Positions 13,976 through 35,485 of a stretch of 64,000 nucleotides of DNA are shown here, in pieces. Position numbers and translations under genes: made by a program. Source of the DNA: a virus (Duplodnaviria > Caudoviricetes); IMG/VR virus record IMGVR_UViG_3300029288_000148, positions 11,773 to 75,772 of that record; one strand, 5' to 3'. How positions within the stretch are numbered: the stretch's first letter is position 1; every line of letters starts with the position of its first letter. A model generated the notes under the pieces. The model worked only from the letters and a program-made list of their open reading frames with translations. It was not told the DNA's origin and did no database searches.

Positions 13976-16447
13976 CTATAAAGTAATTACTTCAATTATG
14001 TAATTCATCAAAACATCGTCCGTTGATGAGCTATCAACACTCACGGACATTATTATATTCCCCGAACTAAGAGAACTTGTTATTGTAATACCAACATTGT
14101 CGCCATAATATTCCACCGATTGATCTGTTAATGGGTTTTTGTTAATGATAAACACTGTCCCCATCTGGTCATTTGATCCTCGTCTTGCAGCATAGTCTAT
14201 TATAACTGCGCTATCTGTTGATAAATTTCCTACGACAATATTGGTTACAGCTCCATAAGGAAGTATCCCTTCAGGAATGACAGGTTCAGGTTCTTCTTCA
14301 GGAAGAACATTCGTTATACAATTAATACTATTCTGCTCAAATTGAGGATTCCCTCCAATTTCATCCCATGATACTCCATTGTCAACCGATCTCCAAATAT
14401 CTCCGGTGTCATCACCTATTAAGATAACTCCATCAGCAATATGCGTAGCGCATAGTATCGATGTGGCAATTCCCAAAACATTTATTTCTGTTGTAAAATC
14501 ATCATCAGTATAACTTATGCTTTCAGTGTTACAGCTAAATAGTATCCTTGATCCATTTGCGCCAATTATGAAATTTACCTTATTACTACCAAAGCTTCCC
14601 ATGTCTGCCCAACTCTCTCCTCCGTCAGCCGATCTCCATATATGACCATCAGTATCTCCCGCATATATATTTGATGAACTATCTGTATAGGCTGCAGAAA
14701 AACCACCTGCCTGTTTTAAGGAATAAGTTGCGCTATCAATAGTCCAATTATAAATACCTGTACTGGTAATAAGTATTACATTCGTTTCGTCAATGAAAGA
14801 AGATCCATAAAGTACTCCCAGATTTAATCCGGAAGACTTAAATGTTGCTCCACCATCTATACTGTAATTAAGGTTCCCAAGGGCATCAGAAACTACAACT
14901 ACCTCCTGAAATGCTCCGATGTGGTAAATATGATCCGATCCGGCACTCCCAGCATAAGTATAATATCCTGTTGAATAGTTAATAACTCTGCCTTGGTCGG
15001 TGCTATAAATTATATCACCATTTCCAAGTCTTGCAAAACTTGTCGGATTGCCCAGATTAAAACTGCCTTCATTTACAAATGTTATTCCAACGTCAACGGA
15101 TCTGAGAATTAATCCACCTATCGATGTCCCTGCCAAGATGAAACTTTCGGAATCGATACTCAGCGATTTAACAAGTCGAACATTGGCTACTACAAGATTT
15201 TTATCTAAATGTTCTGTTGTCCAAAAAACTCCACTATTAGAAACAAGGTAAGGCATATAAATCTCTGTTTCATCAAACATTTCGCTTGTTGCAAAAAATG
15301 CAAATTCTTTTATACTGGAAAAAGAGGCATCAATCTTATTTCTATATCCTCCCCCAAGCGCAGTAAATCCTGATTCGTTTGTTGCTCCGGTATTAGGGGC
15401 GTTCCAATGAACTAATCCAGTTTCCTTCATCTTCCCGCCTGCGTTATATGCTCCACCAATCGCACTCGCTAATTTTGCCCAATCCTGTAATGTAGGAACT
15501 CTCCACCCTTCTTCATGAACACCATTACGAAGCATATAGGCTATTCCCTTGGCATTTGTATAGGCATAGGCGCTATAGATAATGCCATAATCGCGATATG
15601 TAACCGGATCGTTATCATACCAACAATATCCTCCATTATGCCCTGCACTGCCATCTTCTGCAAGCCAATCCGCATCTAAGGTAAGGTTTGGTATTGCTGT
15701 CCCGTCAGCGTATTTTGTGACTATTAGGTTTTCGATAAGCCAAACTTGGTTGCCAACAACAACTTCTGTGTAAATATTCCCATCCAGATCAGTAAGCACA
15801 CCAATGTCAGCGTCTTTCAGCCAAAACGTAGCTTTCTCTTTTAAAAGCTTAAATATCGTATCAAACATTCCACAGGGAAGTGCGGTAAAATTACTTGAGT
15901 TATCTGCTAAAAGGTTTGGCGATGCCCAATGAGTAAGTCCGGCCTCCTTCATCTTTGCCCCAGCCACTAATGCACCGCCAAGATATGACATCAATTCGTC
16001 AAAATCTGATTCAAAAGGCACCCTCCACCCTGCAGGCGCAAAATCCCCTTGTTGTATCATATCCCAATTATAAAGCCCCCCACAGGACACCCTGTTTTCT
16101 TCATCATCATTAAATACTTTGCTCCCGGGATAATCAAAATCCCAATTCTTTCCCATCCATACCTGATCTCCAATTGCGACTTCCGGATAACCCTCGTAAA
16201 TGAATTGTGATCCAATGGCCCCGCCATAATAACCAGGAATAGAGGCGTCAATCAATAGCTCCACCTCTGCAAGTAAGGTTTCCATTAATCCAAACCCTTG
16301 CTGTTCGTCACTGGAAGCCACCCTTACGTTCAGGGCATCGAGATATTCTCCGTTTAAGAAATTCTCAACATCCTCTGGAGAATGATCTTTATTCATCCCC
16401 AGCGAAAAACGCCGCTCATCGTGATTTTGTCCCTGATTCTGCCTCAT
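13976..16447 (-). CDS. Muzzle N-terminal fragment fused to two FISUMP (Fibrobacter succinogenes major paralogous) domains, a BNR-type beta-propeller and a C-terminal domain, 823 aa
   Basis: Begins GMNKD...GEYLDALNVRV (Crass muzzle N-terminus). IGDQVWMGKN...GGLYNW...PAGWRVP and TDLDGNIYTEVVVGNQVWLIENL...YCWYDND...GWRVPT are FISUMP motifs; repeated SxDGG/SVDNG BNR motifs follow. Confidence 0.75.
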   Translation of the reverse strand: MRQNQGQNHDERRFSLGMNKDHSPEDVENFLNGEYLDALNVRVASSDEQQGFGLMETLLAEVELLIDASIPGYYGGAIGSQFIYEGYPEVAIGDQVWMGKNWDFDYPGSKVFNDDEENRVSCGGLYNWDMIQQGDFAPAGWRVPFESDFDELMSYLGGALVAGAKMKEAGLTHWASPNLLADNSSNFTALPCGMFDTIFKLLKEKATFWLKDADIGVLTDLDGNIYTEVVVGNQVWLIENLIVTKYADGTAIPNLTLDADWLAEDGSAGHNGGYCWYDNDPVTYRDYGIIYSAYAYTNAKGIAYMLRNGVHEEGWRVPTLQDWAKLASAIGGAYNAGGKMKETGLVHWNAPNTGATNESGFTALGGGYRNKIDASFSSIKEFAFFATSEMFDETEIYMPYLVSNSGVFWTTEHLDKNLVVANVRLVKSLSIDSESFILAGTSIGGLILRSVDVGITFVNEGSFNLGNPTSFARLGNGDIIYSTDQGRVINYSTGYYTYAGSAGSDHIYHIGAFQEVVVVSDALGNLNYSIDGGATFKSSGLNLGVLYGSSFIDETNVILITSTGIYNWTIDSATYSLKQAGGFSAAYTDSSSNIYAGDTDGHIWRSADGGESWADMGSFGSNKVNFIIGANGSRILFSCNTESISYTDDDFTTEINVLGIATSILCATHIADGVILIGDDTGDIWRSVDNGVSWDEIGGNPQFEQNSINCITNVLPEEEPEPVIPEGILPYGAVTNIVVGNLSTDSAVIIDYAARRGSNDQMGTVFIINKNPLTDQSVEYYGDNVGITITSSLSSGNIIMSVSVDSSSTDDVLMNYIIEVITL

Positions 16448-19052: not shown

Positions 19053-19136
19053 TTACGCCTTCCATCCTCCCCAGAAAGCAAGTATCAGCAAAAAGACAAA
19101 CAGTCCTCCGGTAATGTATTTAAGTAGCTTTGTCAT
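19053..19136 (-). pseudogene. Short membrane peptide, 27 aa (MTKLLKYITGGLFVFLLILAFWGGWKA), paralog of 18813-18938
   Basis: ATGA overlap with the upstream gene; shares FWGGWKA; ends in TAA TAA. Confidence 0.4.
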
Positions 19137-19393
19137 TGCGTTTCTTTTGTATGCTCATCAAGTTTCTTTTCAATCCGGTTAAGCTGTTCCAGTACAAGGT
19201 TAAACTCATCACGGCTCACTTTTGATCCTTGCAGTCTTTCGATGTTGTTTTCGTTGTGAGTCGCCCGAAGCTCAAGTGTAGCTGCTTTTGCGGAAATTAC
19301 ACCCCATGTTGTTACCCCTGCAAGGATAATTGATACCAAGCCGGATAATGCCCACTGAGGAAGGGTTACATACTTTTCTTTGTCAAGTGTCAT
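19133..19393 (-). CDS. Single-TM coiled-coil protein in lysis cassette (holin/antiholin-like), 86 aa
   Basis: One hydrophobic helix followed by a heptad-rich tail; downstream of the endolysin. Confidence 0.5.
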   Translation of the reverse strand: MTLDKEKYVTLPQWALSGLVSIILAGVTTWGVISAKAATLELRATHNENNIERLQGSKVSRDEFNLVLEQLNRIEKKLDEHTKETQ

Positions 19394-19439
19394 CTTTAAT
19401 TGTATTAATCATAATTACCGCAAATAGTTTTAAGTCATC

Positions 19440-19739
19440 TCACTTATTATTTATTCCTACCACTGTCGAATTATCCGGATTAAACACCTTCGCCACCTTT
19501 TTAAATAACATCTGTCCTGACATTCCCAAGACAACGGAGCTGATAAATGTGATAGTGTAAATAGATGCAATCTCTTCCTTTGCATAAACAAGCACTCCTC
19601 CGCAAATAATGTTAAGTAAAGTCGATCCTATGTTCTGTTTAAAGAAAATAGAAAACTTATAATCCGGTTTTGTTAGTGCCTCATTGAACCCTAAAAGAAG
19701 GCTTATGGCCGCACCAATTAAAATAGCTACGTAATACAT
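19440..19739 (-). CDS. Holin-like membrane protein, 99 aa
   Basis: Three hydrophobic segments; lysis cassette context. Confidence 0.55.
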   Translation of the reverse strand: MYYVAILIGAAISLLLGFNEALTKPDYKFSIFFKQNIGSTLLNIICGGVLVYAKEEIASIYTITFISSVVLGMSGQMLFKKVAKVFNPDNSTVVGINNK

Positions 19740-19741
19740 CG

Positions 19742-20143
19742 CTAAACCTCCTTTTCGATCCCTAAAGCCCGGAGAATCATTTTCACAAGCTCTATATCAA
19801 AGAATCCATTAGCAACTAATCCGGCAGCTACACCATATATAATAGTATTAAGCCAGCTAAGTTCAGCCATAAACCCGATATTAACAAGATTGCCGACAAT
19901 TATAAGTACGAGTGCCACTAACCATGCTACTATCTGTTTCATGAATCCGGCAGTCTTAAATAGTGTATTAAGGAAAGCTGCAAGGAATACAGTTACAGCC
20001 GCTACCCCTGCAAGGGAGCCAAGCCATACGTTTATATTTGCAAACAGTTCCAACCAGTTTGTAGGAGGATCAACAGCCTGACCGAAAGTCGGGAGAATAA
20101 GAACAAACATCAAAGCAAAAAACATCATTAACTTTTTCATCAT
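19742..20143 (-). CDS. Multi-TM holin-like protein with signal-peptide-like N-terminus, 133 aa
   Basis: MMKKLMMFFALMFVLILPTFG|Q followed by several TM helices. Confidence 0.55.
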   Translation of the reverse strand: MMKKLMMFFALMFVLILPTFGQAVDPPTNWLELFANINVWLGSLAGVAAVTVFLAAFLNTLFKTAGFMKQIVAWLVALVLIIVGNLVNIGFMAELSWLNTIIYGVAAGLVANGFFDIELVKMILRALGIEKEV

Positions 20144-20164
20144 TTTCTTTTTTAAATTAATATT

Positions 20165-20254
20165 TCAACCTTTATAAATTATTAATAAAACAATCGCTGC
20201 AATTATACCAAGCATTACTGCCCATTCGCTTATTTCTCTAAGTGTGCTTTTCAT
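20165..20254 (-). CDS. Small single-TM peptide, 29 aa
   Basis: MKSTLREISEWAVMLGIIAAIVLLIIYKG; ATGA overlap with the endolysin stop. Confidence 0.45.
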   Translation of the reverse strand: MKSTLREISEWAVMLGIIAAIVLLIIYKG

Positions 20255-20685
20255 ACGATCACAACTTTAAACTTTTCATCCATTACATCCCAAAGCGCAT
20301 CCATAGCTTTTGAGCTATCGGCAACGTCAAGCATCCCGTCCTGATTCAGGTCATAGAAATATAAACCTGGAAGAATACACCCCTCTGAATCTTTCTGGTA
20401 CCCTGCTACGAAGTTTCCCACATGAACGAGTATTCCACTACGTCCACGGACATAAAGCAACCTGAACACCTTTCCTTTTGTCTGGTGCAGTTCTTTAACT
20501 GCATTGTATTCTCCTTCCGGGATGCAACTCACATTACGTTGATTTGAAACCCAAGGTAATTCCAATGCCTTACACCTATAAAGCAATTCCTCTCCGTTCA
20601 TCGCATAAACTGATGACATAGTTAAGTTTGGCTTGTATGTCCGACTTAATAAGAGCTTTTTTGATATGTCGCTAAAGGTTGACAT
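20251..20685 (-). CDS. DUF5675-family putative endolysin (peptidoglycan peptidase)
   Basis: ALELPW..N...SCIPEGEY, GRSGILVHVGN and DSEGCILPG motifs; start moved to MSTF at 20685. Confidence 0.8.
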   Translation of the reverse strand: MSTFSDISKKLLLSRTYKPNLTMSSVYAMNGEELLYRCKALELPWVSNQRNVSCIPEGEYNAVKELHQTKGKVFRLLYVRGRSGILVHVGNFVAGYQKDSEGCILPGLYFYDLNQDGMLDVADSSKAMDALWDVMDEKFKVVIV

Positions 20686-20687
20686 AT

Positions 20688-22400
20688 TTATATTCTTACC
20701 CATTTACCATTATAAAATACCCACTTAATGCCATTTTTAACAAATGATGTTGTCTTTGTTGTAAACTCTAAATCTTCACCATATTGTGTGCCAACTTCAT
20801 TTGTGGCATAAGCTCGAACATGAAATGTTGATCCTTCGGTTAATCCAGTAATATTCGCCACATAAGCACCTGTTGTGCCACTAACAGTAACAACATTATC
20901 AGTCAAATCAGGATTTGCGCCAGTACTCCAAACAACACCCCTTGCAGAAATAGTTCCACCACCATCATCATATACATTCCCACCGACTGAGCAAGTTGTT
21001 TTTGACGGATATGCACCAGTTGTAAAAATGACAAGTGGTTCAATCTCCTCTCCGGGATCAGGATCATTATATTCGTAAGCCCCTATACTTGGGGGAGTAC
21101 CCCATAATATTGAATCGGCATCATAAGTTAATCCAACATCAACTCCTATTCCCCGTAATTGAGATGTAGATGATAATCGCAAAAACTTATTATAGCAATC
21201 ATTATCAGGTAGTGATCCATCGGCTTGTCTTGGTGCAGTTAATCCAGTTGAATCAATTGATTGAAAATCCAAATTATTAACGGTAAGTCCTGATATGTCC
21301 CATGAGTTATGGTCATGCGTATATACAGCACCAGATCGGGTAAAAACACTTCCTGATACATTCCCGTATGACACATTATTTCGAAATATCCTCAAGTATT
21401 CATCTGCATCATACCCAGTACTTAACCTACTTATATTAAATCCAGAACCTTTATTTGCGTAGGATATATTGTTATAATATTGAGAAATTAATATATAATT
21501 ACCATACCACTCATTGGTAAAGAAGCCACTACCGTCATTATATAAAGCAAAACAATTATATACCTCACGCCTTAATTCATCAGAGGGCTGCTCTATCCAG
21601 CCTAATTTATAGCCTGATCCATCGGGCATAAATATGTTCGTATTGCAAAATGACCAGCACCCTACACATTTAATATAACCACATGATGATACATTAAATC
21701 CCTGATCTGAACAATGCCATGCTCTGCAATTATAAAAATATGTCTCACCTGTAGTACTGGTACGATTAACTACATCAAAACCAGTACCAGCATTTCCAGT
21801 AGTAAGACTATCACAAATATTATATGCATCACAATTAGTAAAAACATGTTGACCATCATTTGAACCTGAAAAGGATGAATAAAATCCAGCACCCTCACAG
21901 TTGTAAGCAACACAATTTTCCACTGCCACAATTCCGTAATTAAAAAACCAACCTACTCCTTGAGAACCTGTCTCGGCAGTATATTGTTTAAAATTTCTTA
22001 CTGTTAATCCCTGAAATTTTACATAATAAATAGGATTACTTGAATCTCCACGTATGCCAACATTTTTATAACCAACAGGGCTTAATGGATCAGAATTACT
22101 GCCATCAAGTATGGGCGTTTCTCCGGGATAATTAATATAAACTATCCAATTATCTGTTGTCCCATCACGAGTTGGACATATCCCTGCTCCATTTGTTACG
22201 GTTGTCGGATATACACCTCCTCTTATAAAAACAGTATCCCCTGGATTAACATTAGTTGTAGTCATAGCATATTGCCATGTTGCCCATGGACTCGCTAATG
22301 TTCCAGCATTGCCATTATCCCCCGTTGTAGCTACATAATAAGTATTTGCACGAACAATGGCATTGAAACAAATAAATAATATTATTAATATTTTTTTCAT
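20688..22400 (-). CDS. Right-handed beta-helix polysaccharide lyase-like protein (PL9-like) with FN3-like domain and Sec signal peptide, 570 aa
   Basis: MKKILIILFICFNAIVRA|NTYYVATTG...PGDTVFIRGGVY, Asn-ladder repeats, DGSGYKLG, GGNVYDDGG...ARGVVWS...HVRAYATNEVG; true start at 22400. Confidence 0.8.
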   Translation of the reverse strand: MKKILIILFICFNAIVRANTYYVATTGDNGNAGTLASPWATWQYAMTTTNVNPGDTVFIRGGVYPTTVTNGAGICPTRDGTTDNWIVYINYPGETPILDGSNSDPLSPVGYKNVGIRGDSSNPIYYVKFQGLTVRNFKQYTAETGSQGVGWFFNYGIVAVENCVAYNCEGAGFYSSFSGSNDGQHVFTNCDAYNICDSLTTGNAGTGFDVVNRTSTTGETYFYNCRAWHCSDQGFNVSSCGYIKCVGCWSFCNTNIFMPDGSGYKLGWIEQPSDELRREVYNCFALYNDGSGFFTNEWYGNYILISQYYNNISYANKGSGFNISRLSTGYDADEYLRIFRNNVSYGNVSGSVFTRSGAVYTHDHNSWDISGLTVNNLDFQSIDSTGLTAPRQADGSLPDNDCYNKFLRLSSTSQLRGIGVDVGLTYDADSILWGTPPSIGAYEYNDPDPGEEIEPLVIFTTGAYPSKTTCSVGGNVYDDGGGTISARGVVWSTGANPDLTDNVVTVSGTTGAYVANITGLTEGSTFHVRAYATNEVGTQYGEDLEFTTKTTSFVKNGIKWVFYNGKWVRI

Positions 22401-22401
22401 A

Positions 22402-24657
22402 TTAAAATGGATAGGTTTTCCCATTACCGCCATTATATAATTCTGTTATTTCGTCTGCGGTTAAAGCACGCGACCATACACCCACTTCGTCTACATAAGA
22501 ACCAACCATTGATCCATAATCATTTCTACCTATTCTAAAATTATTTACATTAGTTACCGGAGTTAAAGTAAACGCATCTGTAATAGGTTCTCCACCATTA
22601 AGATACAACTTATGTATATTGTCATTATCGCTCCAAGTATAAACAATATGATACCATTGTCCTGTTGTAAGTGTTGTTGTATGTTCAAATTGATCACGTG
22701 CGCTTGAACTTGCTATTTGCGCCCTTATTGTATATGGAGCTGTTGTTCCGTATAACCATATATGATACCCTTCACGATCAGTAGTAAAATTTATTTTGCC
22801 TACTAAATTATTTGCTGATGTCGTTGGATCAGAAACGCAATAAACCCACACAGATATTGATCCCTCGCCTCCTACTGATAAATCCTCTGTATTTCCCATG
22901 TCAAAGTAGCCAGTATTGCTAAATAAAACACTTCTTCCACTTATAGCTTCAGCCTGATCTTCGGTTACAGTTCCTCCTTCAGTACCATCATTACTTCCAA
23001 TTTCATCAGTAGCAGTTGTCCCAGATGTATGATCTAATTTATAATAAGCTACCAGTCCGGTAAGTAAGGATGATTGGTTATTATTAGTTACTGAAGTATT
23101 TGTAAATGGTGCAGCGTGATAACCTGCGCTATCCTGTAAATAAGGCCAGTCTCTCGCATAACTAAGCGTATATGTTAAGTTTTTATGTGAGATACTATCA
23201 AGTGCAATAAATAGACTATCATGTCCTATACTTATGCCATTCAAACCATAGGTTGTTCCTTCTTCTTTAAGTGTAAACGCTGTTTGTGGTGGCACACTAT
23301 CTTGATCAAGATACTTATTCCAGACAACCAAAACAGTATCATCCGCAAATTCCCCTACTTCTATTTTACTAATTATAGGTCTATACCCATTGTTAGTTAC
23401 CGTCTTATTTGTAAATGACTTGACTTCATTTTCGTCACTATCCTGCAAAGGGCCTAATAATGGTTTTGTGTATGCAAGTTTTAATGTTGTGTCTGCTTGT
23501 GGAGTTTGATCAAGTACGAGAAATAGTGTATCATTTGATATGGATACATTTGTAACATCAATAGTATCAACTTCTGATCCATATTCAAAATAAAAAGTTG
23601 TAGTTGCCGGAATAGAATCAGCGACTAAATTTTCAGACATTACAACTCGTAAAAGCCTTGCAGCACTATCACCAACCTCTGCACTTTCAAATGTTGGTGG
23701 CAATACAGATGTTATCTCTGTTTGTAAATCAGTAAATGCAGTAAGGAGCGAATCATGTCTATAATAAATATATGTGCTATCCCATGCAACATTAGCCATT
23801 ATGCTATCGACTTGTCGCTGAGTGTAGTATTGACCTCTTGTAGTAACAAGTGTATCACCAACCAAAACTGCAACATCTCCTAAATCTTCAATATCCGAAG
23901 CAATAATATGTACTCCTAATGTATCAGCACCATCATAGAAAGCAATTCGACTATTAACTAATCCTATTGAGTCAATCGAAAGAGAAGTACCTCCAACATT
24001 CAAAGAATTAGCTGTTACAAGCCCTGATGTAGTTATTGTTGTCGGAGTCGATATACTTCCTCCTATTGTCAGGTTATTACTTCCAAGTGCTAAATCTGCA
24101 CCAACTGTTAAAGTACCGTCTGAATGAGTTATTGTTTCGGCATTGTTGAATCTGATAACACTCGCTGAATCTAAATCAACATCATCAAAAGGATAAGTTG
24201 CACTACCTAAATCTATTGTTCCTGCTGCATTTGGAAGAAGGTTAGTGTTTATTGCTACACTGGCAAGATTTGATAATGCTTTATTGGCATAAGCGGCATT
24301 TGCTTCACTTGTTAGAATATAATTAGTCAACATACCTGCTGTATCTGCCCTGTTAATATATGGCACAAGCATAGTATTTGTATCTGCAACCATTACAACT
24401 AATGGACGTAATACATTTAAACTATCTTCTATTTCGCCTCTTACATCAAGTATAGATGCACCAGTAGTAGTATAAGAAGCACCACCAATGTATATTACAA
24501 CTTCTCCTGTCACTAATTTAACTGAATCAATTAAATCAAGTGTATTGCCACCTATTCGTATCCCACCATTGGCATGTATAGGATATTTAAATCTGTTTTG
24601 CCCATAAGCACCTATGGCAGCAAGCATAAATAATATTGTAATTAAAATCTTTTTCAT
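22402..24657 (-). CDS. Tail-fibre-like protein with SwmB-like repeats, C-terminal LamG (ConA-like) domain and Sec signal peptide, 751 aa
   Basis: MKKILITILFMLAAIGAYG|Q; ANKALSNLASVAIN...DLGS shaft motif; LVAYYKLD...WYHIV...LYLNG...VDEVGVWSRALT LamG motifs. Confidence 0.75.
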   Translation of the reverse strand: MKKILITILFMLAAIGAYGQNRFKYPIHANGGIRIGGNTLDLIDSVKLVTGEVVIYIGGASYTTTGASILDVRGEIEDSLNVLRPLVVMVADTNTMLVPYINRADTAGMLTNYILTSEANAAYANKALSNLASVAINTNLLPNAAGTIDLGSATYPFDDVDLDSASVIRFNNAETITHSDGTLTVGADLALGSNNLTIGGSISTPTTITTSGLVTANSLNVGGTSLSIDSIGLVNSRIAFYDGADTLGVHIIASDIEDLGDVAVLVGDTLVTTRGQYYTQRQVDSIMANVAWDSTYIYYRHDSLLTAFTDLQTEITSVLPPTFESAEVGDSAARLLRVVMSENLVADSIPATTTFYFEYGSEVDTIDVTNVSISNDTLFLVLDQTPQADTTLKLAYTKPLLGPLQDSDENEVKSFTNKTVTNNGYRPIISKIEVGEFADDTVLVVWNKYLDQDSVPPQTAFTLKEEGTTYGLNGISIGHDSLFIALDSISHKNLTYTLSYARDWPYLQDSAGYHAAPFTNTSVTNNNQSSLLTGLVAYYKLDHTSGTTATDEIGSNDGTEGGTVTEDQAEAISGRSVLFSNTGYFDMGNTEDLSVGGEGSISVWVYCVSDPTTSANNLVGKINFTTDREGYHIWLYGTTAPYTIRAQIASSSARDQFEHTTTLTTGQWYHIVYTWSDNDNIHKLYLNGGEPITDAFTLTPVTNVNNFRIGRNDYGSMVGSYVDEVGVWSRALTADEITELYNGGNGKTYPF

Positions 24658-24669
24658 ATTATCTTTAAA

Positions 24670-25020
24670 TTATATTACTGATGTACTATAAACTGTTTCC
24701 CAATCTGTATCTTCAACCCCATCAAAACCTAATGGCGTTAATTCATTATCTATATAATAAACACATGCTCTTACCTGTTGCCTGTATCCTGCCACTCCAT
24801 CATCAATAGTCATTATTATACTATCCTCATCAAGTTCAAGTTGTACTATATTAAGTTCCCATGTAACACCACCGTCTGAAGAAAAGTCAATAACATACAT
24901 TCCATCCCTTTCTCCTTTTCTATACCAACATAGTCCACTCGAAACAATAGTCCAGGGTGATGCTTCTCCAACTTGTCTGCTAAAAGGTATCCCTATTGCT
25001 GTTCCTATACAAATACTCAT
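24670..25020 (-). CDS. Small fibre-associated protein with internal duplication, 116 aa
   Basis: Two copies of a YR...R...Y.ID.......G...WE pattern; lies between fibre genes. Confidence 0.55.
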   Translation of the reverse strand: MSICIGTAIGIPFSRQVGEASPWTIVSSGLCWYRKGERDGMYVIDFSSDGGVTWELNIVQLELDEDSIIMTIDDGVAGYRQQVRACVYYIDNELTPLGFDGVEDTDWETVYSTSVI

Positions 25021-25023
25021 GGT

Positions 25024-26787
25024 TTATTGTATAATTATTATAAATTTCCCGTCTGTTGTTTTCATAAACCTTGTTCTTATTGCGTCAGGTGTTGCAAAAA
25101 CTTTATTCCCTGTTGTTGGAGTACCATAATATTCATAAGCACCTATATCAACCTCTGTTCCTTCCCATGGTACTTCTTTTTGTCCATAATCGCTTGTCAA
25201 CCCCACGTCTATACCCGTATCAATGGCGGGAGAAAAAGATTGTAATTCATAACTCCCCGCCTGAAACATTGGCGCATCCTGAATATTATCTTCTATAATA
25301 TCTCCACTTATATCTGCACTATTCCATGTAGCAACTGAAATATTGGGTGTGCCCCGATAATAAATTATATTTGTTGCACCTAAAGTATATATAAGATTGT
25401 TTTTAAATACATTATCTAAAACTGTTGCTCCACTTGATACATAAATTGCAGTGTCATCACAAGCATAAATAATATTATTGATAAACTCATTATCATACTT
25501 ATCAGTATAAGTTGCACCATGTATAAGCCCAATGCCATAATCTTCACAATGAGCAATTATATTATTATAAAACTTCATATTATTTGCCGTTCCTGGCGTA
25601 AGTCCTCCTATCCATAAACCGCCTCCCGCATTAATATTTTTAGGGTAATGTGCTGGTGCATTAACTGTATCAATGATATTATAATAGAACTTTAAATTCT
25701 CGCCTTGTACCTGCATTCGTGCCTGTATATTATGTATATAGTTACGATAAATCTCATTACCATCACCATTAGTATAAAGCACACCAAGCCAACCTCCATA
25801 ATCAACATCAGGAGCAGTTATCTCATTATCATAAACTTTTACATTGTCAATCCTATCTGCGTCTGTACTTTCAAGAACAATAGATGTATGTCCCCAATTT
25901 TTGAAGTAATTATCATGTATAGACCATGTATTTGATATACCACCAACCTTAATGCCATCTCCGGTATATTTTGCTTCCCAATCTGAAACAAATGTATTTT
26001 CTGTATCAAAATTGCAGTTCTTTATTTCTACATCTCTTGTATCAACAGATGCATAAGCATTTATTCCATAAAATCCTTTAATATCGCAACTATCTATCAC
26101 TATTCCATCTGCATCATCAACTATCACCCCTATATATGCATGTTCAATATCAAGATTATTAATAGTAACATAATTAACCCCATTGAGATATATCCCTGAA
26201 TATGATGATGTTGCCTTTTCAATATAAGTAAATGTCGTTGCTGGATTTGTTTCAGAATAAATAAATAAACTATCATCACCATTCCAATACCATGGTTTTG
26301 ATGCTGTTGGTGGGAATGATTCAGGTCTCTCAACTTCAATACTATCAATCCATAATCTTATTGCTGTCCAATAAGAAGGTGTTCTTATTTCTTCCTGATA
26401 CCATACGTTAGGTCTTGTTGCCTCCCATGGCCTTGACCAATTACTCGCACCCGACCAACCAACAACTGTATCCCTTGCTGTAATAATAGGCTTTTCTCCC
26501 GTACCATAAGATGTTATAACAATTGGATGTCCGGAAGTTCCACTTCCACTAAGCCTAAGTGTTGTATCTGAGTGTATTGATAATATCCATTTAGCATCAC
26601 AATTAAAATGTATAGAATCATCCGGCTGATATGTAACAGATATTAATTGTCTGATAGTTTTCCATGCCTGAGCAGGACTTTCGCCATCATTACCATCATC
26701 TCCTGAATTAGATATATAATAATTTTTATCCTGACTATTCAGAATCAGTCCAATAAAAAGAAATAATATGATAAATACATTTCTCAT
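25024..26787 (-). CDS. Right-handed beta-helix depolymerase-like protein with Sec signal peptide, 587 aa
   Basis: MRNVFIILFLFIGLILNS|QDKNYYISNSGDDGNDGESPAQAWKTI; beta-helix Asn repeats; SPAIDTG...DIGAYEY. Confidence 0.8.
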   Translation of the reverse strand: MRNVFIILFLFIGLILNSQDKNYYISNSGDDGNDGESPAQAWKTIRQLISVTYQPDDSIHFNCDAKWILSIHSDTTLRLSGSGTSGHPIVITSYGTGEKPIITARDTVVGWSGASNWSRPWEATRPNVWYQEEIRTPSYWTAIRLWIDSIEVERPESFPPTASKPWYWNGDDSLFIYSETNPATTFTYIEKATSSYSGIYLNGVNYVTINNLDIEHAYIGVIVDDADGIVIDSCDIKGFYGINAYASVDTRDVEIKNCNFDTENTFVSDWEAKYTGDGIKVGGISNTWSIHDNYFKNWGHTSIVLESTDADRIDNVKVYDNEITAPDVDYGGWLGVLYTNGDGNEIYRNYIHNIQARMQVQGENLKFYYNIIDTVNAPAHYPKNINAGGGLWIGGLTPGTANNMKFYNNIIAHCEDYGIGLIHGATYTDKYDNEFINNIIYACDDTAIYVSSGATVLDNVFKNNLIYTLGATNIIYYRGTPNISVATWNSADISGDIIEDNIQDAPMFQAGSYELQSFSPAIDTGIDVGLTSDYGQKEVPWEGTEVDIGAYEYYGTPTTGNKVFATPDAIRTRFMKTTDGKFIIIIQ

Positions 26788-28607
26788 TCAGTAAATGGAT
26801 GGGTTGTTGTTGAATTATATAACAAGGTTACATCGGCTGGTGTAAATGCCTGATGCCATATAGCGCATTCATCCATATAACCACGAAAGTTTAATGCACC
26901 ATTTGTAGTATAATTACCGAAATATATATTAGAATTAGATGAGTGTAATGTTCCGCTAAATGTATAATTAGCATCATAAGCTGTCGTTACGTCAACATTA
27001 TTAACATATATTAAATTAGTTTTTCCATCTCCCCTATGAACGAAAACTACATGATATACAGTACTATCTGAAATTGCTGCAGTAGATATAGAGCTATATT
27101 CTGTTCCAGTAGAATTATATGTCCTAAACATTATTTTACCATCTGTATCTATATAAGCTCTATGAGTAAGTACTGGTGTTGCAGTATTTGTTATTGCAAA
27201 AATATAATCTGCTGTTGAAGCACCTATTGAATCAGCCCATATCCATGCAGATACTGTAAATAATGCATCAGGATTAACATTAACATTATAAGGCACTCTA
27301 ATCTGACTTTTATATCCAATATGCCTATTGTAATTATACTTTGCGTGTGCCGTAGTTGCTGTTGTGGCAGCACCTAAAACAGCTTCCTGAATATCATTTG
27401 CATCCGCTCCCGCTGTACCGCTTGTCTCATCAAGTTTATAATAAACAGCTAAACTATCAAGTAATGGTGATTCCTGACCCTCTAATGACAAATAATTCCA
27501 TGAAATAGGTTCTCTTATTCGTATTTCAACCCATTCATCATCTGTCCAATCAGGTCTCACAAATATTGTATCTTCATTTATACGATAACTACTATCTCTT
27601 GTATTTATAGCACCCGTATGAAACCAATGTAAATCACCTCGTCTATATACATCAAGCTGTTTACCTATAAATGCTGAATGAATAATAGTACTATCCCCCG
27701 AAGATGGAGCACCTGTGGTTGTCCCTATAATAAACTTTAATATATCACCCGTAAAAGAGCCACCACCACCTGATCCTATATATCCCTGGACATAAGAGGG
27801 TGTAGCAACATAATCATTATCACTTGCACCATCTGTTGTATCTGCTAATGCAATACCTATTACTGCATTATCTAACCTTTCCTGTATAGTATCATTAACT
27901 AATTCTGCTGTTTGTAAGCGTGGCATATAATTACCCTCAGATACTCCGGTACTATCTGCTGTTCCTACCGTTGCCGTTGCTGTCCGGAAGTCTGCCGCAC
28001 TTAATGCATTAACTCCATTTGTAGCTGTTATTTGCGGAAAGGTTATTGCTGAGGGATTAGGCAGCATAAAGAATGCTGATCCAACTGTTGTTGCTCCAAG
28101 GGATGTTCGTCCGTCTGCAGCGATAAGATCAGTATTACCACCATCCCATTTAAGCCTATCCGTGTAGGCTGTGTTCCAGTTTGCAACTGGCATCGCAACA
28201 CCACTAATTGTAGGTACGGTTGATATTTCTATGCTGGTAAACCACCCCTTTAAAATCCTATCTGCTATTGTCCCTATTGATGAGGCACCTAAATTACTAT
28301 AATAATTTACCGCCGTTAATCCTGTCACATAAATAGACGATACTCGATCTATTGAATTACCTATTCCCCCTGTTATTAATAAATTATTACTACCCAAATC
28401 AAAATTTCCTCCGGAAAGCGTCAATTTGTTTATTGACTGAGTAAGAGACAAATCGTTATTGAAATTGATATTGGCTCCCGATCCCTGTAGATAAAATGTC
28501 GGTGTTGTCTTTTTTAGGGTTAAATTAGATTCCATAAGCCTGGTTGATTGACAATAAGCCATGATCCCTACAAAAAACAATATGAATAGGAAAATCAGTT
28601 TTTTCAT
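26784..28607 (-). CDS. Tail-fibre-like protein with C-terminal LamG domain and Sec signal peptide, 607 aa
   Basis: MKKLIFLFILFFVGIMAYC|Q; NWNTAY, GRTSLGATTVG...NPSAITF fibre motifs; AVYYKLDETSG...YHVVFV...GYMDECAIW LamG motifs. Confidence 0.75.
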   Translation of the reverse strand: MKKLIFLFILFFVGIMAYCQSTRLMESNLTLKKTTPTFYLQGSGANINFNNDLSLTQSINKLTLSGGNFDLGSNNLLITGGIGNSIDRVSSIYVTGLTAVNYYSNLGASSIGTIADRILKGWFTSIEISTVPTISGVAMPVANWNTAYTDRLKWDGGNTDLIAADGRTSLGATTVGSAFFMLPNPSAITFPQITATNGVNALSAADFRTATATVGTADSTGVSEGNYMPRLQTAELVNDTIQERLDNAVIGIALADTTDGASDNDYVATPSYVQGYIGSGGGGSFTGDILKFIIGTTTGAPSSGDSTIIHSAFIGKQLDVYRRGDLHWFHTGAINTRDSSYRINEDTIFVRPDWTDDEWVEIRIREPISWNYLSLEGQESPLLDSLAVYYKLDETSGTAGADANDIQEAVLGAATTATTAHAKYNYNRHIGYKSQIRVPYNVNVNPDALFTVSAWIWADSIGASTADYIFAITNTATPVLTHRAYIDTDGKIMFRTYNSTGTEYSSISTAAISDSTVYHVVFVHRGDGKTNLIYVNNVDVTTAYDANYTFSGTLHSSNSNIYFGNYTTNGALNFRGYMDECAIWHQAFTPADVTLLYNSTTTHPFTE

Positions 28608-28918
28608 AACGTAATGATTGATAAGTTGTAATTGAAAGTAATATCATCTACGGATGCGTTATCAACTGTACAGTTTAACCTGAACACACCTGCATTATTG
28701 TCTGCGGCTATCGAAAGCCCCACATCATCGCCAAATGAATCAGGGTTATAATCCGGAGCGTCAAGCGCTCCTTTATTTAGGATGCTAAAACGCCCTGCCC
28801 TCCTTAAAGCACCTCGTATCGCCGACCATGCAACTATTATCCCATGATCCGTATTTGATGCACCAACATTTATGTTTGTTACAGCGTTGTGAGTGAGCGT
28901 ATCATGTAATGTTGCCAT
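28604..28918 (-). CDS. Small virion-type protein paralogous to the C-terminal domain of ORF 13976-16447, 104 aa
   Basis: Manual alignment: AVTNI.VG..TD...RG...G...I.NK..L...GD.VG..I...VD..S.DD...NY...ITL shared. Confidence 0.65.
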   Translation of the reverse strand: MATLHDTLTHNAVTNINVGASNTDHGIIVAWSAIRGALRRAGRFSILNKGALDAPDYNPDSFGDDVGLSIAADNNAGVFRLNCTVDNASVDDITFNYNLSIITL

Positions 28919-28925: not shown

Positions 28926-29255
28926 TTACTTTAAAAAGAATACTTGAAACTTACATCCGGCAGCAGGAACTAATTTCGTAAACCGTCCCGGGAAAAATAT
29001 ATTGTAAGGATAGGTGTATGTCAAATACTTTGCCGCTACGGGTGTCGATGCTCCTGCTTTCCCACCATGAGCAATAGTTGTTTGCTCCTCCATTTCATCG
29101 AAGGTGCCGCCTGCCGCATCTAAGCTTATGAAAGTAGTTACAATCCTCCCTCCGAGGTCTTCATTTACCCCTCCTTCAATAATATCAAAAGCTTCGGGGT
29201 TCCCTGCACCTCCGGCTATTATCTGTTTAGGGTCTTTAAAGTTTTGGTATCCCAT
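28926..29255 (-). CDS. Hypothetical virion-associated protein, 109 aa
   Basis: ORF in structural operon, C-terminal PGRFTKL beta motif. Confidence 0.5.
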   Translation of the reverse strand: MGYQNFKDPKQIIAGGAGNPEAFDIIEGGVNEDLGGRIVTTFISLDAAGGTFDEMEEQTTIAHGGKAGASTPVAAKYLTYTYPYNIFFPGRFTKLVPAAGCKFQVFFLK

Positions 29256-30508: not shown

Positions 30509-31888
30509 TTAGGAGGGTTCCATAAGAAGAAACTGGTTTCCACCACGGAAATGTGCGCCGATATGTGCACGCATATAAGTGTTCCTGCTGTCAAATTCTG
30601 TGACTTTCAGACCTTCGCCTGCGCCACCTACCTGCCATACTTCCATCCTGCGGTTATACTTACCAAGACCACGGTAACGGCATCCTATTGATGCAACCAT
30701 ATTACCGGAAACAGGATCCTTACGTCTGTTGATAGGCATCCAAATACCTAACTGCGGAGCCTCATATCCTGCGGCACCATAGAGTTTCGGATTATTGAAA
30801 ACGCCCATCCTTTTCATAAGGAACGTCCTTTCGGACTTCGTAAGGTAAGTAAAGTTGACCGATGCACTCAGAGCTTCATTGCTGTTGAAAAGCACCGAAT
30901 TAGTTGCCTGTTTTGCATAATTGATGTTTGTGTTGGCAAAATAGGTAACAAGTGAATTTTCAATGTCCTGATGAAGTGTTATCCCCAAGAGGCCAAGAAT
31001 GTAATTCCCTGCATGTTCACGGTCAAGGGTATTGTCCATTTCGTCAAATTCATCAATGTCAAATGCCCCTGATGTATATGACTGTTCGTTTCCTACCCTG
31101 CGGATATATGGTACCAGACCTTCGGTTGTCTTAATCGGCCTTCCGGTATCTGGGTCAATAAGTCCGGTGGTATTGGTTGTGATCTTGTTCCACAGAAGTG
31201 CACCGTCAATTTTCAGTGCCATTCTGTAGTCAATGTCAACCTGACCAAGAAAATAATATGCGGGAATAGCCTGTCCTCTGGATGTCACATTAAACCATGT
31301 CTGGTTCACCATTTCTGTTCCGGTGTTACCAATGGTTTCTTTGATGATCTGAGCCACATTGTCATATCTCCATACTCCCCGAAGGGCTGCGTCCGGCTGT
31401 CCTGATCCTTCTGACCAAGCGTCGGTAAAGATCACAAGCTCATCACCTGCTGTAAGTGCAGGAAACTGATCAGAAACCTCATTGGGTTCGCAAGTGATTA
31501 TCGGTGCTGTCGGATCGGTAACGTCAATGTCAACAATCGATCCCGGTACTTCGTTCTGGAATAATATCTGATCCCAAAGACGAGGATAATAATTGTTGTT
31601 TACGTCAAGGTCAATAGTGTCAAGCGTAAATGAAATAGGATCGCCGACTGCCGGCTGTACCACATTCTCTTTTACGTGAATTATTTCATGGATACGGTTT
31701 TCTTCCCAGTGTCCATATTCATCCAGCGATACTTGTTCTTCAAATCCCATGGATCTGAGTAGCTGGAAATAAGATGCTCCCTGATCTCCAAAACGGCTGA
31801 AAAGCACGTTCTGATTTTCTGGCTTGTGAATATCAAAGCCTGATACGATGTCAGAGGCGTATATTTGTGCAATAGCTTCTGGTCCCAT
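30509..31888 (-). CDS. Major capsid protein (HK97 fold, Crassvirales-type), 459 aa
   Basis: Size, order terminase-portal-scaffold-MCP, motifs NVAQIIKETIGNTGT, KTTEGLVPYI and SVNFTYL; followed by a strong terminator. Confidence 0.85.
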   Translation of the reverse strand: MGPEAIAQIYASDIVSGFDIHKPENQNVLFSRFGDQGASYFQLLRSMGFEEQVSLDEYGHWEENRIHEIIHVKENVVQPAVGDPISFTLDTIDLDVNNNYYPRLWDQILFQNEVPGSIVDIDVTDPTAPIITCEPNEVSDQFPALTAGDELVIFTDAWSEGSGQPDAALRGVWRYDNVAQIIKETIGNTGTEMVNQTWFNVTSRGQAIPAYYFLGQVDIDYRMALKIDGALLWNKITTNTTGLIDPDTGRPIKTTEGLVPYIRRVGNEQSYTSGAFDIDEFDEMDNTLDREHAGNYILGLLGITLHQDIENSLVTYFANTNINYAKQATNSVLFNSNEALSASVNFTYLTKSERTFLMKRMGVFNNPKLYGAAGYEAPQLGIWMPINRRKDPVSGNMVASIGCRYRGLGKYNRRMEVWQVGGAGEGLKVTEFDSRNTYMRAHIGAHFRGGNQFLLMEPS

Positions 31889-33166: not shown

Positions 33167-35485
33167 TTATTTTGCCGATTGTCCTGTTGCCGCACCCTGC
33201 GGAATTGCCGTCTTCTCTATTGCGTTCATAGTTGTCTGTAACGCAATCATTTCCTTTTCTCTTTCAAACTTTATAGCCTCGTATTTCTCTGTTAATTCCA
33301 ACTCCGCTGCTTTGTATCTTATCTTTTCGTCTGTCTCAATCCTAAGCCTTTCAATTTCCGTCTGATTCTTTAATTGTATTCCCTCCAATTCCCTCTGCTT
33401 ATCCAAAAGCATGTTTTCTCTTTGCAGTTGAAGTTGTTTTTCTTTGTTCTTTCTGCTTCGATAATTGAGAAATGCTTCGGCATATTTCAGGTTTCCATTT
33501 TCAAGAAGTCTTTCGATGAGGAGAAAATCTGAAAGCTCAATACTTTTCGTTCCGTCCTGATCGGGTGTCATGGCTGTCATGGCTGCCTGTAAAATAACTT
33601 CCTTGCGTTTCTCTGTGGGTTTTGCCTCGTATTTGATATAATAGTTTGCATCAACAACGTCTGCGCTAACGCTTACTATTTGTACCCCTACTCTGCCAAG
33701 GACCGGGATGTATCCTTCATAAGCTTTTTTGTTATGTTTTATTAAGAGTTGCATGCGCATAGCTGCGTTCTTAGCCACCCTTTCCTTTACGTTGATATAA
33801 GCTGCATATATCGGTCTTAATGCGTTATTTGTTGCGGCAATGGCTAATTCTGAACCTCCTACAGACTGTTCTGGGTTAGGGTTTGACGCATCGGCGATCT
33901 GGTTTACTCCGGTTACTTCCCTGATGAAGTTGATATATAAATCGAAAATCTTTATAAACTCGTCAAGCTGTCCTCCAATACCTCCTTGTAACTCCTGTAT
34001 TGGCCGGTATCCTCCGGGAATGTTTGGCTGCCCCTTGTGGGTTGTTGCCTTGTAAATAAGATCACCTGTTTCCTTGCGCATCTGCAGAAGCTCCAATGGC
34101 TCCATCTTATTGCCGCCAAGCTTCATGTTTTGCAGTGCAGTATATTCTATCGATATTCCCGAAGGGGCTGCTTGTGCAAGTGCGTTTTGTAGTTTTATGT
34201 GAGCAAGTGCTATTTGGTGAAGACAGGGCTCTGCAGACTGAACAATAGCTTTATCCGGACGACTGTAAAAATGATAGGAAAGGTTTACTTCTTTATCTCC
34301 GGGCCTTGGTATGTCATGCTGCAACCCAAAATCAAAGACAATGTTTGTTCCGACAACCCATTTGGCTTTATAGACAACGTGAATATCATAAACATCTGTT
34401 TTGCGCTTATCGGTAGCCTTAACCGTTCCCCATTCTTCTTCGTATGTAAGCTCGTCCCCGTACTGATTCTTCCTTGTCGTCCAATATTCGCTATTAACAG
34501 ACTTAAACTCGAAATCCAAAACATCGAGCATGAAATCGCTCCACTTACAAGTACTGGTAAGTTTTGAAAATTCCGCCCCAAGGTCCATATCGTTAAGCTG
34601 TGGGTTGCCATTTACTGCATTAAACTTCTTTGCGGCTTTTTGTAGTTCGGCAATATCCACATTTGGATCCTGTTTTGCAATCTCGTTTACTGACATCTGC
34701 AAAAGCTCTCCGGCCCAGACCATACCTTTAGAATCATAAGACTTTGATCTCTGTCCAATAAACATTACCGGATCAACATATCTGCTTTTAACTTTCTTAG
34801 AAAAATTATCTGTATAGTCTTTTGCGCAACAGGCATGAAAAGTCACAAAATCTCTTATAAGCCTCCGCTTAACTTCCTTCCAATCGGATATATAAAACGT
34901 ATAATCAAGCCCTTCTTCCAACTCGGTCTCCCTGCTCAGTTTAAATCCTCCCATGCCGGAATAAAGATCAAGCTCATCAACCGATTCTGGCATAAACTGT
35001 GCGCCGCTTTCAATGCCAAGCCCCTTTTCGATCTCACTAACTATGTCGTGGAACTTCATGTTAAAGGCTGTGCGTAACTTTAATTCCTCTTTCTCCCCTG
35101 TGCTTTTCGGATCAACGGCAGTAGCGACTACCTGATGCTCTGTTTGCTCCATCATGCCCTCAATGACACGCATGAATTTTGGCATTACGGAAAATACATC
35201 AAAGGAAACATTCATATACCCTTCCATGCTGCCATCTGCCTCGCTTTCATCAAGGAGTATTTTTTGATAACGAAGGACATCCTGATTGCCATTTGCCAGG
35301 TCTCTTAACTCAGAAATTTCTTTTAGCTTGTTGTAGGGGATACAGGTACGATCTTTTAACCACAGGGAAATAATTGCCTCACCATATTTTTTTGCCCATT
35401 CCTTGTTCTTTTTCTTTGGGTTGATATTATCTTCCGGAAAAGAATATGAGCCTGTTGTATATTGTTCGTAATAGGGTAATGCCAT
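33167..35485 (-). CDS. Portal protein (Crassvirales-type), 772 aa
   Basis: Follows terminase; FSVMPKF..VIEG, AIVQSAEP.LHQIALAHIKLQ, GVNQIADAS and C-terminal coiled-coil crown. Confidence 0.85.
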   Translation of the reverse strand: MALPYYEQYTTGSYSFPEDNINPKKKNKEWAKKYGEAIISLWLKDRTCIPYNKLKEISELRDLANGNQDVLRYQKILLDESEADGSMEGYMNVSFDVFSVMPKFMRVIEGMMEQTEHQVVATAVDPKSTGEKEELKLRTAFNMKFHDIVSEIEKGLGIESGAQFMPESVDELDLYSGMGGFKLSRETELEEGLDYTFYISDWKEVKRRLIRDFVTFHACCAKDYTDNFSKKVKSRYVDPVMFIGQRSKSYDSKGMVWAGELLQMSVNEIAKQDPNVDIAELQKAAKKFNAVNGNPQLNDMDLGAEFSKLTSTCKWSDFMLDVLDFEFKSVNSEYWTTRKNQYGDELTYEEEWGTVKATDKRKTDVYDIHVVYKAKWVVGTNIVFDFGLQHDIPRPGDKEVNLSYHFYSRPDKAIVQSAEPCLHQIALAHIKLQNALAQAAPSGISIEYTALQNMKLGGNKMEPLELLQMRKETGDLIYKATTHKGQPNIPGGYRPIQELQGGIGGQLDEFIKIFDLYINFIREVTGVNQIADASNPNPEQSVGGSELAIAATNNALRPIYAAYINVKERVAKNAAMRMQLLIKHNKKAYEGYIPVLGRVGVQIVSVSADVVDANYYIKYEAKPTEKRKEVILQAAMTAMTPDQDGTKSIELSDFLLIERLLENGNLKYAEAFLNYRSRKNKEKQLQLQRENMLLDKQRELEGIQLKNQTEIERLRIETDEKIRYKAAELELTEKYEAIKFEREKEMIALQTTMNAIEKTAIPQGAATGQSAK

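Follow-up and report, generated by a model that had tools for sequence, protein, structure and literature searches.

Among described systems, the fibre block of crAss001 resembles the locus treated here in its layout, since a small protein (gp21) is followed by fibre, tailspike and lectin genes (gp22-26) and then by a lysis cassette (gp27-30) with a gp30/DUF5675-type enzyme. The locus in question is a block of four genes, two encoding fibre-type proteins with a C-terminal lectin domain (P0001 and P0003) and two encoding beta-helix proteins (P0002 and P0004), in the IMG/VR virus record IMGVR_UViG_3300029288_000148. This record is complete, with a length of 75.8 kb and direct terminal repeats, and the stretch analysed, called the window from here on, comprises 64,000 nucleotides (bases 11773-75772 of the record). 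Judging from their sequences, all four proteins are likely to be exported by the general secretory (Sec) pathway and cleaved by the host signal peptidase I (SPI). In crAss001, by contrast, gp21-gp26 are leaderless, the block lies between the portal and capsid genes and not after the capsid gene, and it has no sequence similarity to the block of the window apart from gp30. To our knowledge, the assembly of tailed phages is cytoplasmic in every case studied.

The crAss001 fibre gp22 docks in the tail hub via its N-terminal 26 residues (Bayfield et al. 2023, PMC10172136). A 116-aa stub encoded in the window and the leaderless fibres of related phages may dock likewise through an N-terminal peptide.

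Exoproteins of Bacteroidota follow a Gln rule, by which a Gln residue exposed by SPI is cyclised and stabilises the protein (PMC5837995, PMC10653852). Leaders of this kind were found on genes of unknown function in Porphyromonas gingivalis prophages and were read as belonging to envelope modifiers (Matrishin et al. 2023, PMC10367356). Like the block of the window, these are Bacteroidota phage genes with a predicted SPI cleavage exposing Gln, which was interpreted as an adaptation to the host Sec pathway. Unlike it, they belong to temperate siphoviruses, no fibres, depolymerases or tail parts were named among them, and no virion evidence accompanied them. That phage-like trimeric fibres can be exported by Sec and still fold is known from the mosaic adhesive trimer (MAT) fibres of Bdellovibrio bacteriovorus (Caulton et al. 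2024, PMC10769870). By architecture, these are like the fibres of the window (a signal peptide, a conserved N-terminal domain, of about 130 aa and beta-rich in MAT, and a trimeric fibre with a swappable tip), but they are encoded by a bacterium and stand on its own cell surface instead of being part of a virus particle. Regarding the enzymes, the secreted beta-helix lyases and hydrolases of Bacteroidota (PF13229, PF22842) share with the phage copies a leader, followed by a YYV...G.D..G...PW.T cap and the beta helix. These bacterial enzymes are often cargo of the type IX secretion system (T9SS), whereas the phage copies have short hairpin tails instead of the T9SS C-terminal domain. In the study of Benler et al. 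2018, phage target proteins of diversity-generating retroelements were without signal peptides, which was treated as a phage mark.

A preliminary description of the window, made from its sequence, held that leader-bearing fibres and depolymerases were undescribed for crAss-type phages. In agreement with this, full-text literature searches gave no leader-bearing tail fibres or depolymerases in any tailed phage. The nearest paper is that of Matrishin et al. 2023. Two useful extras of this window are a putative docking stub of 116 aa, split off from a fibre, and a free copy of a muzzle-protein domain.

Predicted signal peptides on the four proteins

Leaders were called with a heuristic rule set for the n-, h- and c-regions, plus conservation. 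The N-termini (the hyphen marks the cleavage site) are MKKLIFLFILFFVGIMAYC-Q in P0001 (site AYC-Q), MRNVFIILFLFIGLILNS-Q in P0002 (LNS-Q), MKKILITILFMLAAIGAYG-Q in P0003 (AYG-Q) and MKKILIILFICFNAIVRA-N in P0004 (VRA-N). All of them start with MKK or MR, which provides an n-region with Lys or Arg, and continue with an uncharged h-region of 13-16 residues and small residues at -3/-1. A Bacteroidota Sec/SPI leader is expected to have just such a positively charged n-region, an h-region that spans about 7-16 residues and is too short to cross the membrane stably, and a cleavage site with small or neutral amino acids at -3/-1 directly behind it. At +1, Gln is found in three of the four proteins. 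Among the approximately 100 open reading frames (ORFs) of the 75.8-kb genome, these four were the only large proteins flagged by the heuristic, together with a few small lysis-type or membrane proteins; the capsid, portal, terminase, ring, muzzle and cargo proteins presented no leader. The N-termini are therefore as the preliminary description gave them, and its claim of canonical leaders on the four proteins and none on head, ring or muzzle proteins holds. One correction concerns P0004: its longest ORF begins at 22433, 11 codons upstream and inside the end of P0003, and the form with the leader begins at 22400, 1 nt past the P0003 stop.

A lipoprotein reading, with cleavage by signal peptidase II, was rejected because a Cys near the site is present only in P0001 and is replaced by A, G or S in its homologues, and the other three proteins have none. 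The reading of the four proteins as T9SS cargo was also rejected, since no C-terminal sorting domain (PF18962 or the type B equivalent) was found by Pfam in any of them. As previously proposed, the enzymes have short tails in place of this domain; many of their bacterial homologues do carry PF18962. A leaderless isoform from an internal start was discarded as well, as such a start is not conserved and Met 25 is present only in P0001 and its two closest relatives. Elsewhere in the genome, in the early region, a 137-aa protein (window 56069-56482, plus strand) has a leader very like that of P0001, MKKLIFLFLLMSMKLSA-PP.

Conservation of the leaders

An alignment of 30 sequences of the P0001 family showed M1 and Q20 as the sole invariant columns. 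Of the 43 distinct leaders of this family, 41 have Gln at +1 of an allowed cleavage site, as do 27 of 50 leaders of the beta-helix (P0002) family. Among phage-encoded cases, taking together the window, its relatives and cultured phages, this residue was found in 19 of 22. Gln at +1 has a known role only after cleavage, and therefore its conservation makes sense only if cleavage occurs.

Leaders were also kept by P0002 homologues with 40-94% identity, although the leader sequences have drifted. Most of the 84 homologues of this protein consist of a leader and then directly the YYV motif, and the distant bacterial ones are also found with T9SS domains. The P0003 homologues, at 46-53% identity, keep both the leader and the mature start QN[KR][FY]KYP, and the six full-length homologues of P0004 (47-51% identity) all have leaders, which have drifted, and similar tails. 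Concerning the beta-helix relatives in IMG/VR, 34 present a leader followed by YYV and 14 start exactly at M-x-x-YYV (MATYYV...), so that the leader is a separable module which phages do delete cleanly. Regarding these sequence data, the leaders look selected and not vestigial. The precisely leaderless M-x-x-YYV beta helices, located on viral contigs L057-L063, L085, L093, L096, L097, L099, L106, L123 and L124, constitute a natural control set.

Homologues with more than 40% identity were absent from 185,579 species genomes, where the single match, of 28% identity, belonged to a Saprospiraceae metagenome-assembled genome, and they were numerous in metagenomes and viral contigs. This sole 28% match argues against a recent capture from the host. 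A single-protein scan of viral contigs gave no close relatives of P0001 or P0002, and no homologues of the four proteins were found in 50,697 GenBank phage records.

Leader-bearing proteins annotated as virion parts in cultured Cellulophaga phages

The virion evidence consists of GenBank feature notes that read 'structural protein' by tandem mass spectrometry (MS/MS) proteomics, in which Holmfeldt et al. 2013 is cited. In the Cellulophaga baltica phage phi18:3 (KC821620.1), a podovirus of the Pachyviridae, the three genes directly upstream of the lysis cluster (gp085-087) encode proteins with the leaders MKNKITIIMILMSISFGYS-Q, MKKTIYILSILLLTISGVSA-Q and MKHTFSIVLFFILSIGLNA-Q. Each of them is annotated as a structural protein by experimental MS/MS proteomics. 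In phi10:1 (KC821618.1), which is an unrelated siphovirus of the same host species, gp091-094 have leaders with Gln at +1 and the same note, gp095 is annotated as a pectate lyase and also bears a leader, and the capsid, tape-measure-like and core tail proteins are leaderless. The same three leader-bearing genes as in phi18:3 are present in phi13:2, two of them annotated as pectate lyases. Furthermore, phi18:3 gp086 (L136:4545-6902) and phi10:1 gp093 (L141:14101-16434), both of about 780 aa and with the MS/MS annotation, have an identical leader and mature N-terminus. This identity suggests the exchange of a module across virion types, as receptor-binding modules behave.

The phages phi18:3 and phi10:1 resemble the window in their Bacteroidota hosts, in the position of a fibre and pectate-lyase-type block just upstream of the lysis genes, and in the MKK-type leaders with Gln at +1 that are present on this block and absent from the head and core tail proteins. 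Unlike the proteins of the window, no LamG domains were found in theirs, and the literature searches gave no discussion of their leaders. By analogy with these annotated proteins, it is probable that the leader-bearing proteins are part of the virion.

Domain architecture of the four proteins

According to Pfam, P0001 (E 3e-16) and P0003 (E 6e-20) end in a Laminin_G_3 domain, and P0002 (Beta_helix PF13229, E 4e-22) and P0004 (Pel9A-like PF22842, E 8e-13) contain right-handed parallel beta helices. In the AlphaFold2 model of P0001, residues 2-19 form a confidently predicted helix and residues 385-600 a LamG domain with a predicted local distance difference test score above 90; the model also contains a beta domain, and the fibre region was unmodelled, as expected for a monomer. 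The fold search with the LamG part returned only a generic ConA-like lectin fold. Regarding the beta-helix proteins, their sequence matches in the PDB are weak, and the name 'lyase' was a label of the preliminary description. P0004 contains 15 cysteines.

Both LamG proteins had been said to contain phage-fibre shaft motifs, and this was borne out by their matches to leaderless tail fibres. Residues 143-210 of P0001 are 55-80% identical to repeats of such fibres (Mtd_N-type MAIQIQ..RRG, MANIIKPKRS..., MSTYSP...) and of many leader-bearing ones, and residues 124-160 of P0003 are 70% identical to a leaderless fibre in locus L021. The leaderless fibres with these shaft modules have Mtd_N, S74 and similar features. 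Shaft modules common to known tail fibres were found only in P0001 and P0003, not in the two beta-helix proteins. A leader is present in 44 of the 119 matches listed for the P0001 module.

After the leader, the relatives of P0001 and P0003 present a few recurrent mature N-domains joined to varied distal parts, which would correspond to the usual design of attached, tip-swapping fibres. The mature N-domains of P0001 and P0003 are unlike the leaderless docking peptide of this genomic position, which is carried only by the 116-aa ORF, and the beta helices of P0002 and P0004 have no N-terminal virion-binding domain.

The two beta-helix proteins end in hairpin tails (window 25024-25110 and 20688-20760) with the pattern [DN]GK-hydrophobic-hydrophobic-x-hydrophobic, as in DGKFIIIIQ, NGIKWVFYNGKWVRI and YNGKILKYNGKFVVQ. 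A tandem hairpin tail is also found at the end of the homologues P0016, P0021, P0282, P0311, P0351 and P0358. This tail is like cell-wall or glucan-binding repeats, or like the last strand of T9SS domains, and it may be a docking tag. A different tail, G[RN]KP.AL....L.G[YF]KRNRSY, is present in P0007, P0012, P0212, P0215 and P0216, homologues of P0002 and P0003 which are of beta-helix and fibre type and otherwise unrelated; a tail common to such leader-bearing proteins suggests a shared C-terminal assembly or docking module. The domain of about 95 aa in P0004 (residues ~466-560; window 20700-21000; ...RGVVWS...YHVRAYATNEVGTQYG...) is a very common repeat of giant proteins; it gave 28,177 library matches (E ≤0.001), and a single protein can contain as many as 34 copies.

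The hypervariable fibre slot in related loci

The window was compared with 51 related loci, whose capsid proteins are 59-91% identical to its own. Bounded by the conserved 299-aa and 109-aa genes on one side and by conserved ring genes on the other, the slot is hypervariable among the loci and has fibre-like contents. Large leaderless proteins occupy it in about eleven lineages, and the first of them usually starts with a shared peptide (MGLKQIGI..., MGIQNIGIK..., MSLAIRIGGL...). Leader-bearing proteins occupy it in about seven lineages (this window, L006, L010/L011, L014, L016, L029 and L051). In L011, L014 and L016 a leader-bearing fibre replaces the first leaderless one, and no leaderless fibre is present in the slot. 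Among the 511 ORFs of the 51 loci, 17 were leader-positive, all of them in the slot or at its lysis end.

These data support the view that the block is an exchangeable host-recognition cassette, with two fibre/lectin proteins and two predicted glycan-cutting beta-helix enzymes, and not a set of stray host genes.

Genome context and neighbouring genes

The minus strand encodes, in this order, the terminase, the portal, a 395-aa protein, the major capsid protein, a 299-aa protein, the four-gene block, ring/muzzle-type virion proteins and a giant cargo/polymerase-like ORF. The coordinates of the main features are collected in Table 1. According to the terminase, the nearest cultured phages infect Flavobacteriia: Cellulophaga phages phi13:2, phi18:3, phi19:3 and phi46:3 (Pachyviridae, 27% identity), and also Maribacter phage Panino and podoviruses of Flavobacterium and Tenacibaculum. 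Because the nearest cultured terminases are those of Flavobacteriia phages, this virus would be a crAss-related, Pachyviridae-like podovirus of Bacteroidota and not a crassvirus proper.

Table 1. Features of the fibre block and its surroundings (window coordinates).
Feature	Position	Strand	Description
Terminase	35517-37769	minus	PHROG match (6681/6547 pair with the portal)
Portal	33167-35485	minus	PHROG match (terminase and portal = PHROG 6681 and 6547)
Major capsid protein	30509-31888	minus	
109-aa leaderless protein	28926..29255	minus	Heads the fibre slot; 49-57% identity, same position, in >15 related loci
104-aa leaderless protein	28604..28918	minus	Stand-alone copy of the domain that ends the 823-aa muzzle piece; stop overlaps P0001 start by 4 nt
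P0001, 607 aa	26784..28607	minus	Predicted leader 1-19 (nt 28551-28607), then a conserved N-domain, repeats of tail-fibre type, a beta domain and, at the C-terminus, a LamG lectin
P0002, 587 aa	25024..26787	minus	Predicted leader 1-18, then at once right-handed beta helix from NYYISNSGDDGNDG; tail ...DGKFIIIIQ
116-aa leaderless stub	24670..25020	minus	Fibre-type N-terminal peptide of the slot, MSICIGTAIGIPF...
P0003, 751 aa	22402..24657	minus	Predicted leader 1-19, followed by a fibre region, a pair of SWM/Ig-like repeats and a LamG lectin at the C-terminus
P0004, 570 aa (MKKIL start)	20688..22400	minus	Predicted leader 1-18, then a Pel9A-like beta helix, a C-terminal domain of repeat type (~95 aa) and the hairpin tail NGIKWVFYNGKWVRI
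DUF5675 protein, 150 aa	20251..20703	minus	Endolysin-like; PF18925, E 7e-20; overlaps P0004 end by 16 nt
Three small envelope proteins: 133 aa (leader-bearing), 99 aa and 86 aa (both membrane proteins)	19133..20143	minus	Hydrophobic N-termini

The preliminary description had placed the four ORFs at 20688-28607 on the minus strand, between capsid and lysis genes, as a twice-repeated gene pair. They are present there, and the repetition is real but distant, with 23% identity between the LamG domains (E 5e-8) and 28% between the beta-helix N-termini (E 4e-6); the sequences look like two cassettes of one design and not like a fresh duplication. All along the stretch bounded by the 109-aa gene (29255) and the DUF5675 gene (20251), neighbours overlap or are separated by gaps of at most 12 nt, and therefore the four genes belong to one late unit ending in the endolysin-like gene. 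A scan for sigma-70 promoters and terminators gave counts at chance level. The GC content of the fibre block (window 20000-28000) is 0.35-0.37, compared with 0.40-0.43 in the flanking structural genes, and this AT-richness is as expected for a cassette swapped among phages.

Regarding the small neighbours, the 109-aa protein has no Pfam or PHROG match and is kept whether the fibres of the relatives have a leader or not. The 104-aa ORF product is 37% identical over 97 aa (E 4e-11) to residues 729-823 (window 13976-14260) of the muzzle protein encoded at 13976-16447, and a search of the 51 related loci at E <1e-5 gave no copy of this ORF; it could be a docking or partner module. Over its full length, the 116-aa stub matches the first 102 residues of a slot protein of L051 that has 826 aa and no leader (33% identity, E 2e-14), and its N-terminal motif M[GS][IL]..IG... 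is common to the first leaderless fibre of many relatives. It corresponds to the N-terminal domain of this long fibre, split off as an ORF of its own, and it is a candidate hub-docking adaptor by likeness to residues 1-26 of crAss001 gp22. Shorter versions of the L051-type N-terminal domain are found in L006 (186 aa) and L041 (76 aa).

The lysis genes reported next to the block were recovered as the DUF5675 gene and, after it, those of the three small membrane or leader-bearing proteins. Between the DUF5675 protein and crAss001 gp30, which has an L,D-carboxypeptidase annotation, the identity is 32% (E 2e-7), and the 99-aa membrane protein shares 37% identity with the protein encoded after the leader-bearing block of L029. 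From their position, the three small proteins are probable lysis partners of the holin/spanin type.

Proposed export followed by assembly, and its alternatives

The preliminary description had proposed that the fibres and enzymes are exported to the periplasm and then attached to the particles. What stands of this is a fibre/enzyme cassette with conserved Sec/SPI leaders and with analogues annotated by MS/MS as virion proteins; the attachment of the exported pool is what we infer. In the proposed mechanism, the cassette would be co-transcribed late with the endolysin-like gene, and the four Sec preproteins would be made and cross the inner membrane, where the host SPI would cut them, usually exposing Gln according to the pyroglutamate rule. 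They would then fold in the periplasm like ordinary Bacteroidota exoproteins. Contact with the particle, built in the cytoplasm, could take place only once holin and endolysin open the inner membrane and the wall, probably during a short phase in which the outer membrane still encloses both compartments. Finally, the proteins would dock on leaderless adaptors; the 116-aa stub could serve as one, and so could the C-terminal domain of the muzzle protein, with the 104-aa ORF product as its free copy. A second job before lysis would be compatible with this, namely the cutting or masking of the host's own surface glycan from within.

An exported cassette that meets the particles at lysis and docks on leaderless adaptors is taken as the best explanation of the whole, with about even chances of being right. 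That the pool exported is the same pool that joins the particles is a more tentative proposal. More broadly, it is conceivable, though doubtful, that some tailed phages of Bacteroidota are built in two compartments, with heads and core tails made in the cytoplasm, and fibres, lectins and depolymerases exported by Sec and clipped on after the compartments merge. Maturation in the periplasm would then include pyroglutamate formation and possibly glycosylation or disulfide bonds.

As a candidate mark of a periplasmic location, the O-glycosylation motif D[ST][AILVMT] was counted. It was observed 39 times in the four proteins versus 13.3 expected, with 20 versus 5.1 in P0003 alone, and in the rest of the genome it was at or below expectation. 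In the beta-helix family, it was weakly higher in the leader form (150 versus 114 expected) than in the leaderless form (46 versus 48), a non-significant difference (p 0.18).

Several points weigh against export followed by assembly. The motif is not enriched in the leader-bearing slot proteins of the relatives (24 versus 24.6 expected) or in phi18:3 gp085-087 (one each), and the cysteine content is equal in the leader and leaderless beta-helix forms. The leader-bearing Cellulophaga proteins are positional analogues, with no detectable similarity to the four proteins of the window. The MS/MS notes are silent on cleavage of the virion copies, and sticky periplasmic proteins can co-purify with particles. 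Moreover, the fibres of crAss001 and Maribacter phage Panino are leaderless, and therefore the chassis does not need export; leaderless candidate receptor-binding modules are also found on the muzzle pieces of the virion.

The motif was dropped as a general periplasm mark, since it is a local hint that fails in the relatives and in phi18:3. A 199-aa protein encoded upstream of the window (G000:C1:8871-9470), with the membrane anchor MKKAETIIIIVALIALLAGAFYGG, contains four copies versus 0.5 expected.

The first alternative is that the proteins are exported and act in the envelope without being part of the virion, a possibility that the preliminary description had already raised as capsule remodelling for release or superinfection exclusion. 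The lectin-fibres would mask the receptor or the capsule from within and the enzymes would cut it, with easier release, progeny kept off debris (the job of T5 Llp) and superinfection exclusion as benefits, and the MS/MS detection would be due to co-purification. This is consistent with beta helices that come directly after the leader without a virion-binding N-domain, with the operon link to the lysis genes, with the receptor-binding candidates already present on the muzzle pieces and with a fibre-type N-terminal peptide that, in the slot, only the 116-aa stub has. It would also agree with the proposal of leader-bearing enzymes beside lysis cassettes as lysis aids (PBR31 gp40) and with the interpretation of Q-rule phage proteins as envelope modifiers by Matrishin et al. 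2023. Nevertheless, in two cultured phages that are unrelated, seven of seven leader-bearing tail-end proteins bear the MS/MS annotation as virion proteins, and in L011, L014 and L016 a leader-bearing fibre holds the place of the first fibre with no leaderless one there. The combination of conserved mature N-domains with exchanged distal modules is how attached fibres are normally built, and a leader-bearing fibre N-terminus common to a siphovirus and a podovirus of Cellulophaga is typical of receptor-binding modules. A role confined to the envelope is the main rival reading, considered rather unlikely.

A second alternative takes the N-terminus as no cleaved export signal at all. The proteins could fold and trimerise in the cytoplasm before Sec, saturated or shut off, acts on them, or the hydrophobic N-terminus could be an anchor buried in the tail hub. 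The cytoplasmic assembly of all studied tailed phages would favour this, as would the docking of crAss001 gp22 by its N-terminal residues and the leaderless fibres in relatives with 91% identical capsid proteins. However, an anchor gives no reason for the conserved -3/-1 site and the Gln at +1 in 41 of 43 leaders, and the gp22 N-terminus is not hydrophobic. Among the bacterial homologues, those that have the same leader are cargo of the T9SS and hence truly exported. In addition, the positive n-region dictates an N-in/C-out topology, and there is no conserved internal start that would provide a leaderless isoform. This explanation appears improbable.

It is highly improbable that the genes are recently captured host exoprotein genes (morons) with vestigial, inconsequential leaders: the AT-richness of the block and the abundance of the beta-helix family in Bacteroidota as secreted or T9SS proteins would fit this, but homologues above 40% identity are missing from species genomes and numerous in metagenomes and viral contigs, the leaders persist over deep divergence and are cleanly deleted in other phages, the fibre parts are phage-type and not host-type, and the block occupies a conserved fibre slot.

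Implications for Bacteroidota phages

If only the envelope role applied, the cassette would represent a widespread phage system for the destruction or masking of receptors. For both this role and export followed by assembly, the cultured Cellulophaga phages, with their existing proteomic data, offer a direct test bed. If the exported proteins do join the particles, this would explain how phages can take over genes for exoenzymes and lectins from their hosts with no need to re-adapt the products to folding in the cytoplasm, and it would imply a lysis-coupled checkpoint on infectivity. In practical terms, the fibres of Bacteroidota phages, those of gut and marine crAss-type phages included, would have to be expressed and engineered with the leader, in the periplasm and with a pyroglutamate start. 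Above all, if host-recognition parts were routinely exported first, a new late step of assembly would have to be considered, against the wholly cytoplasmic scheme of the textbooks.

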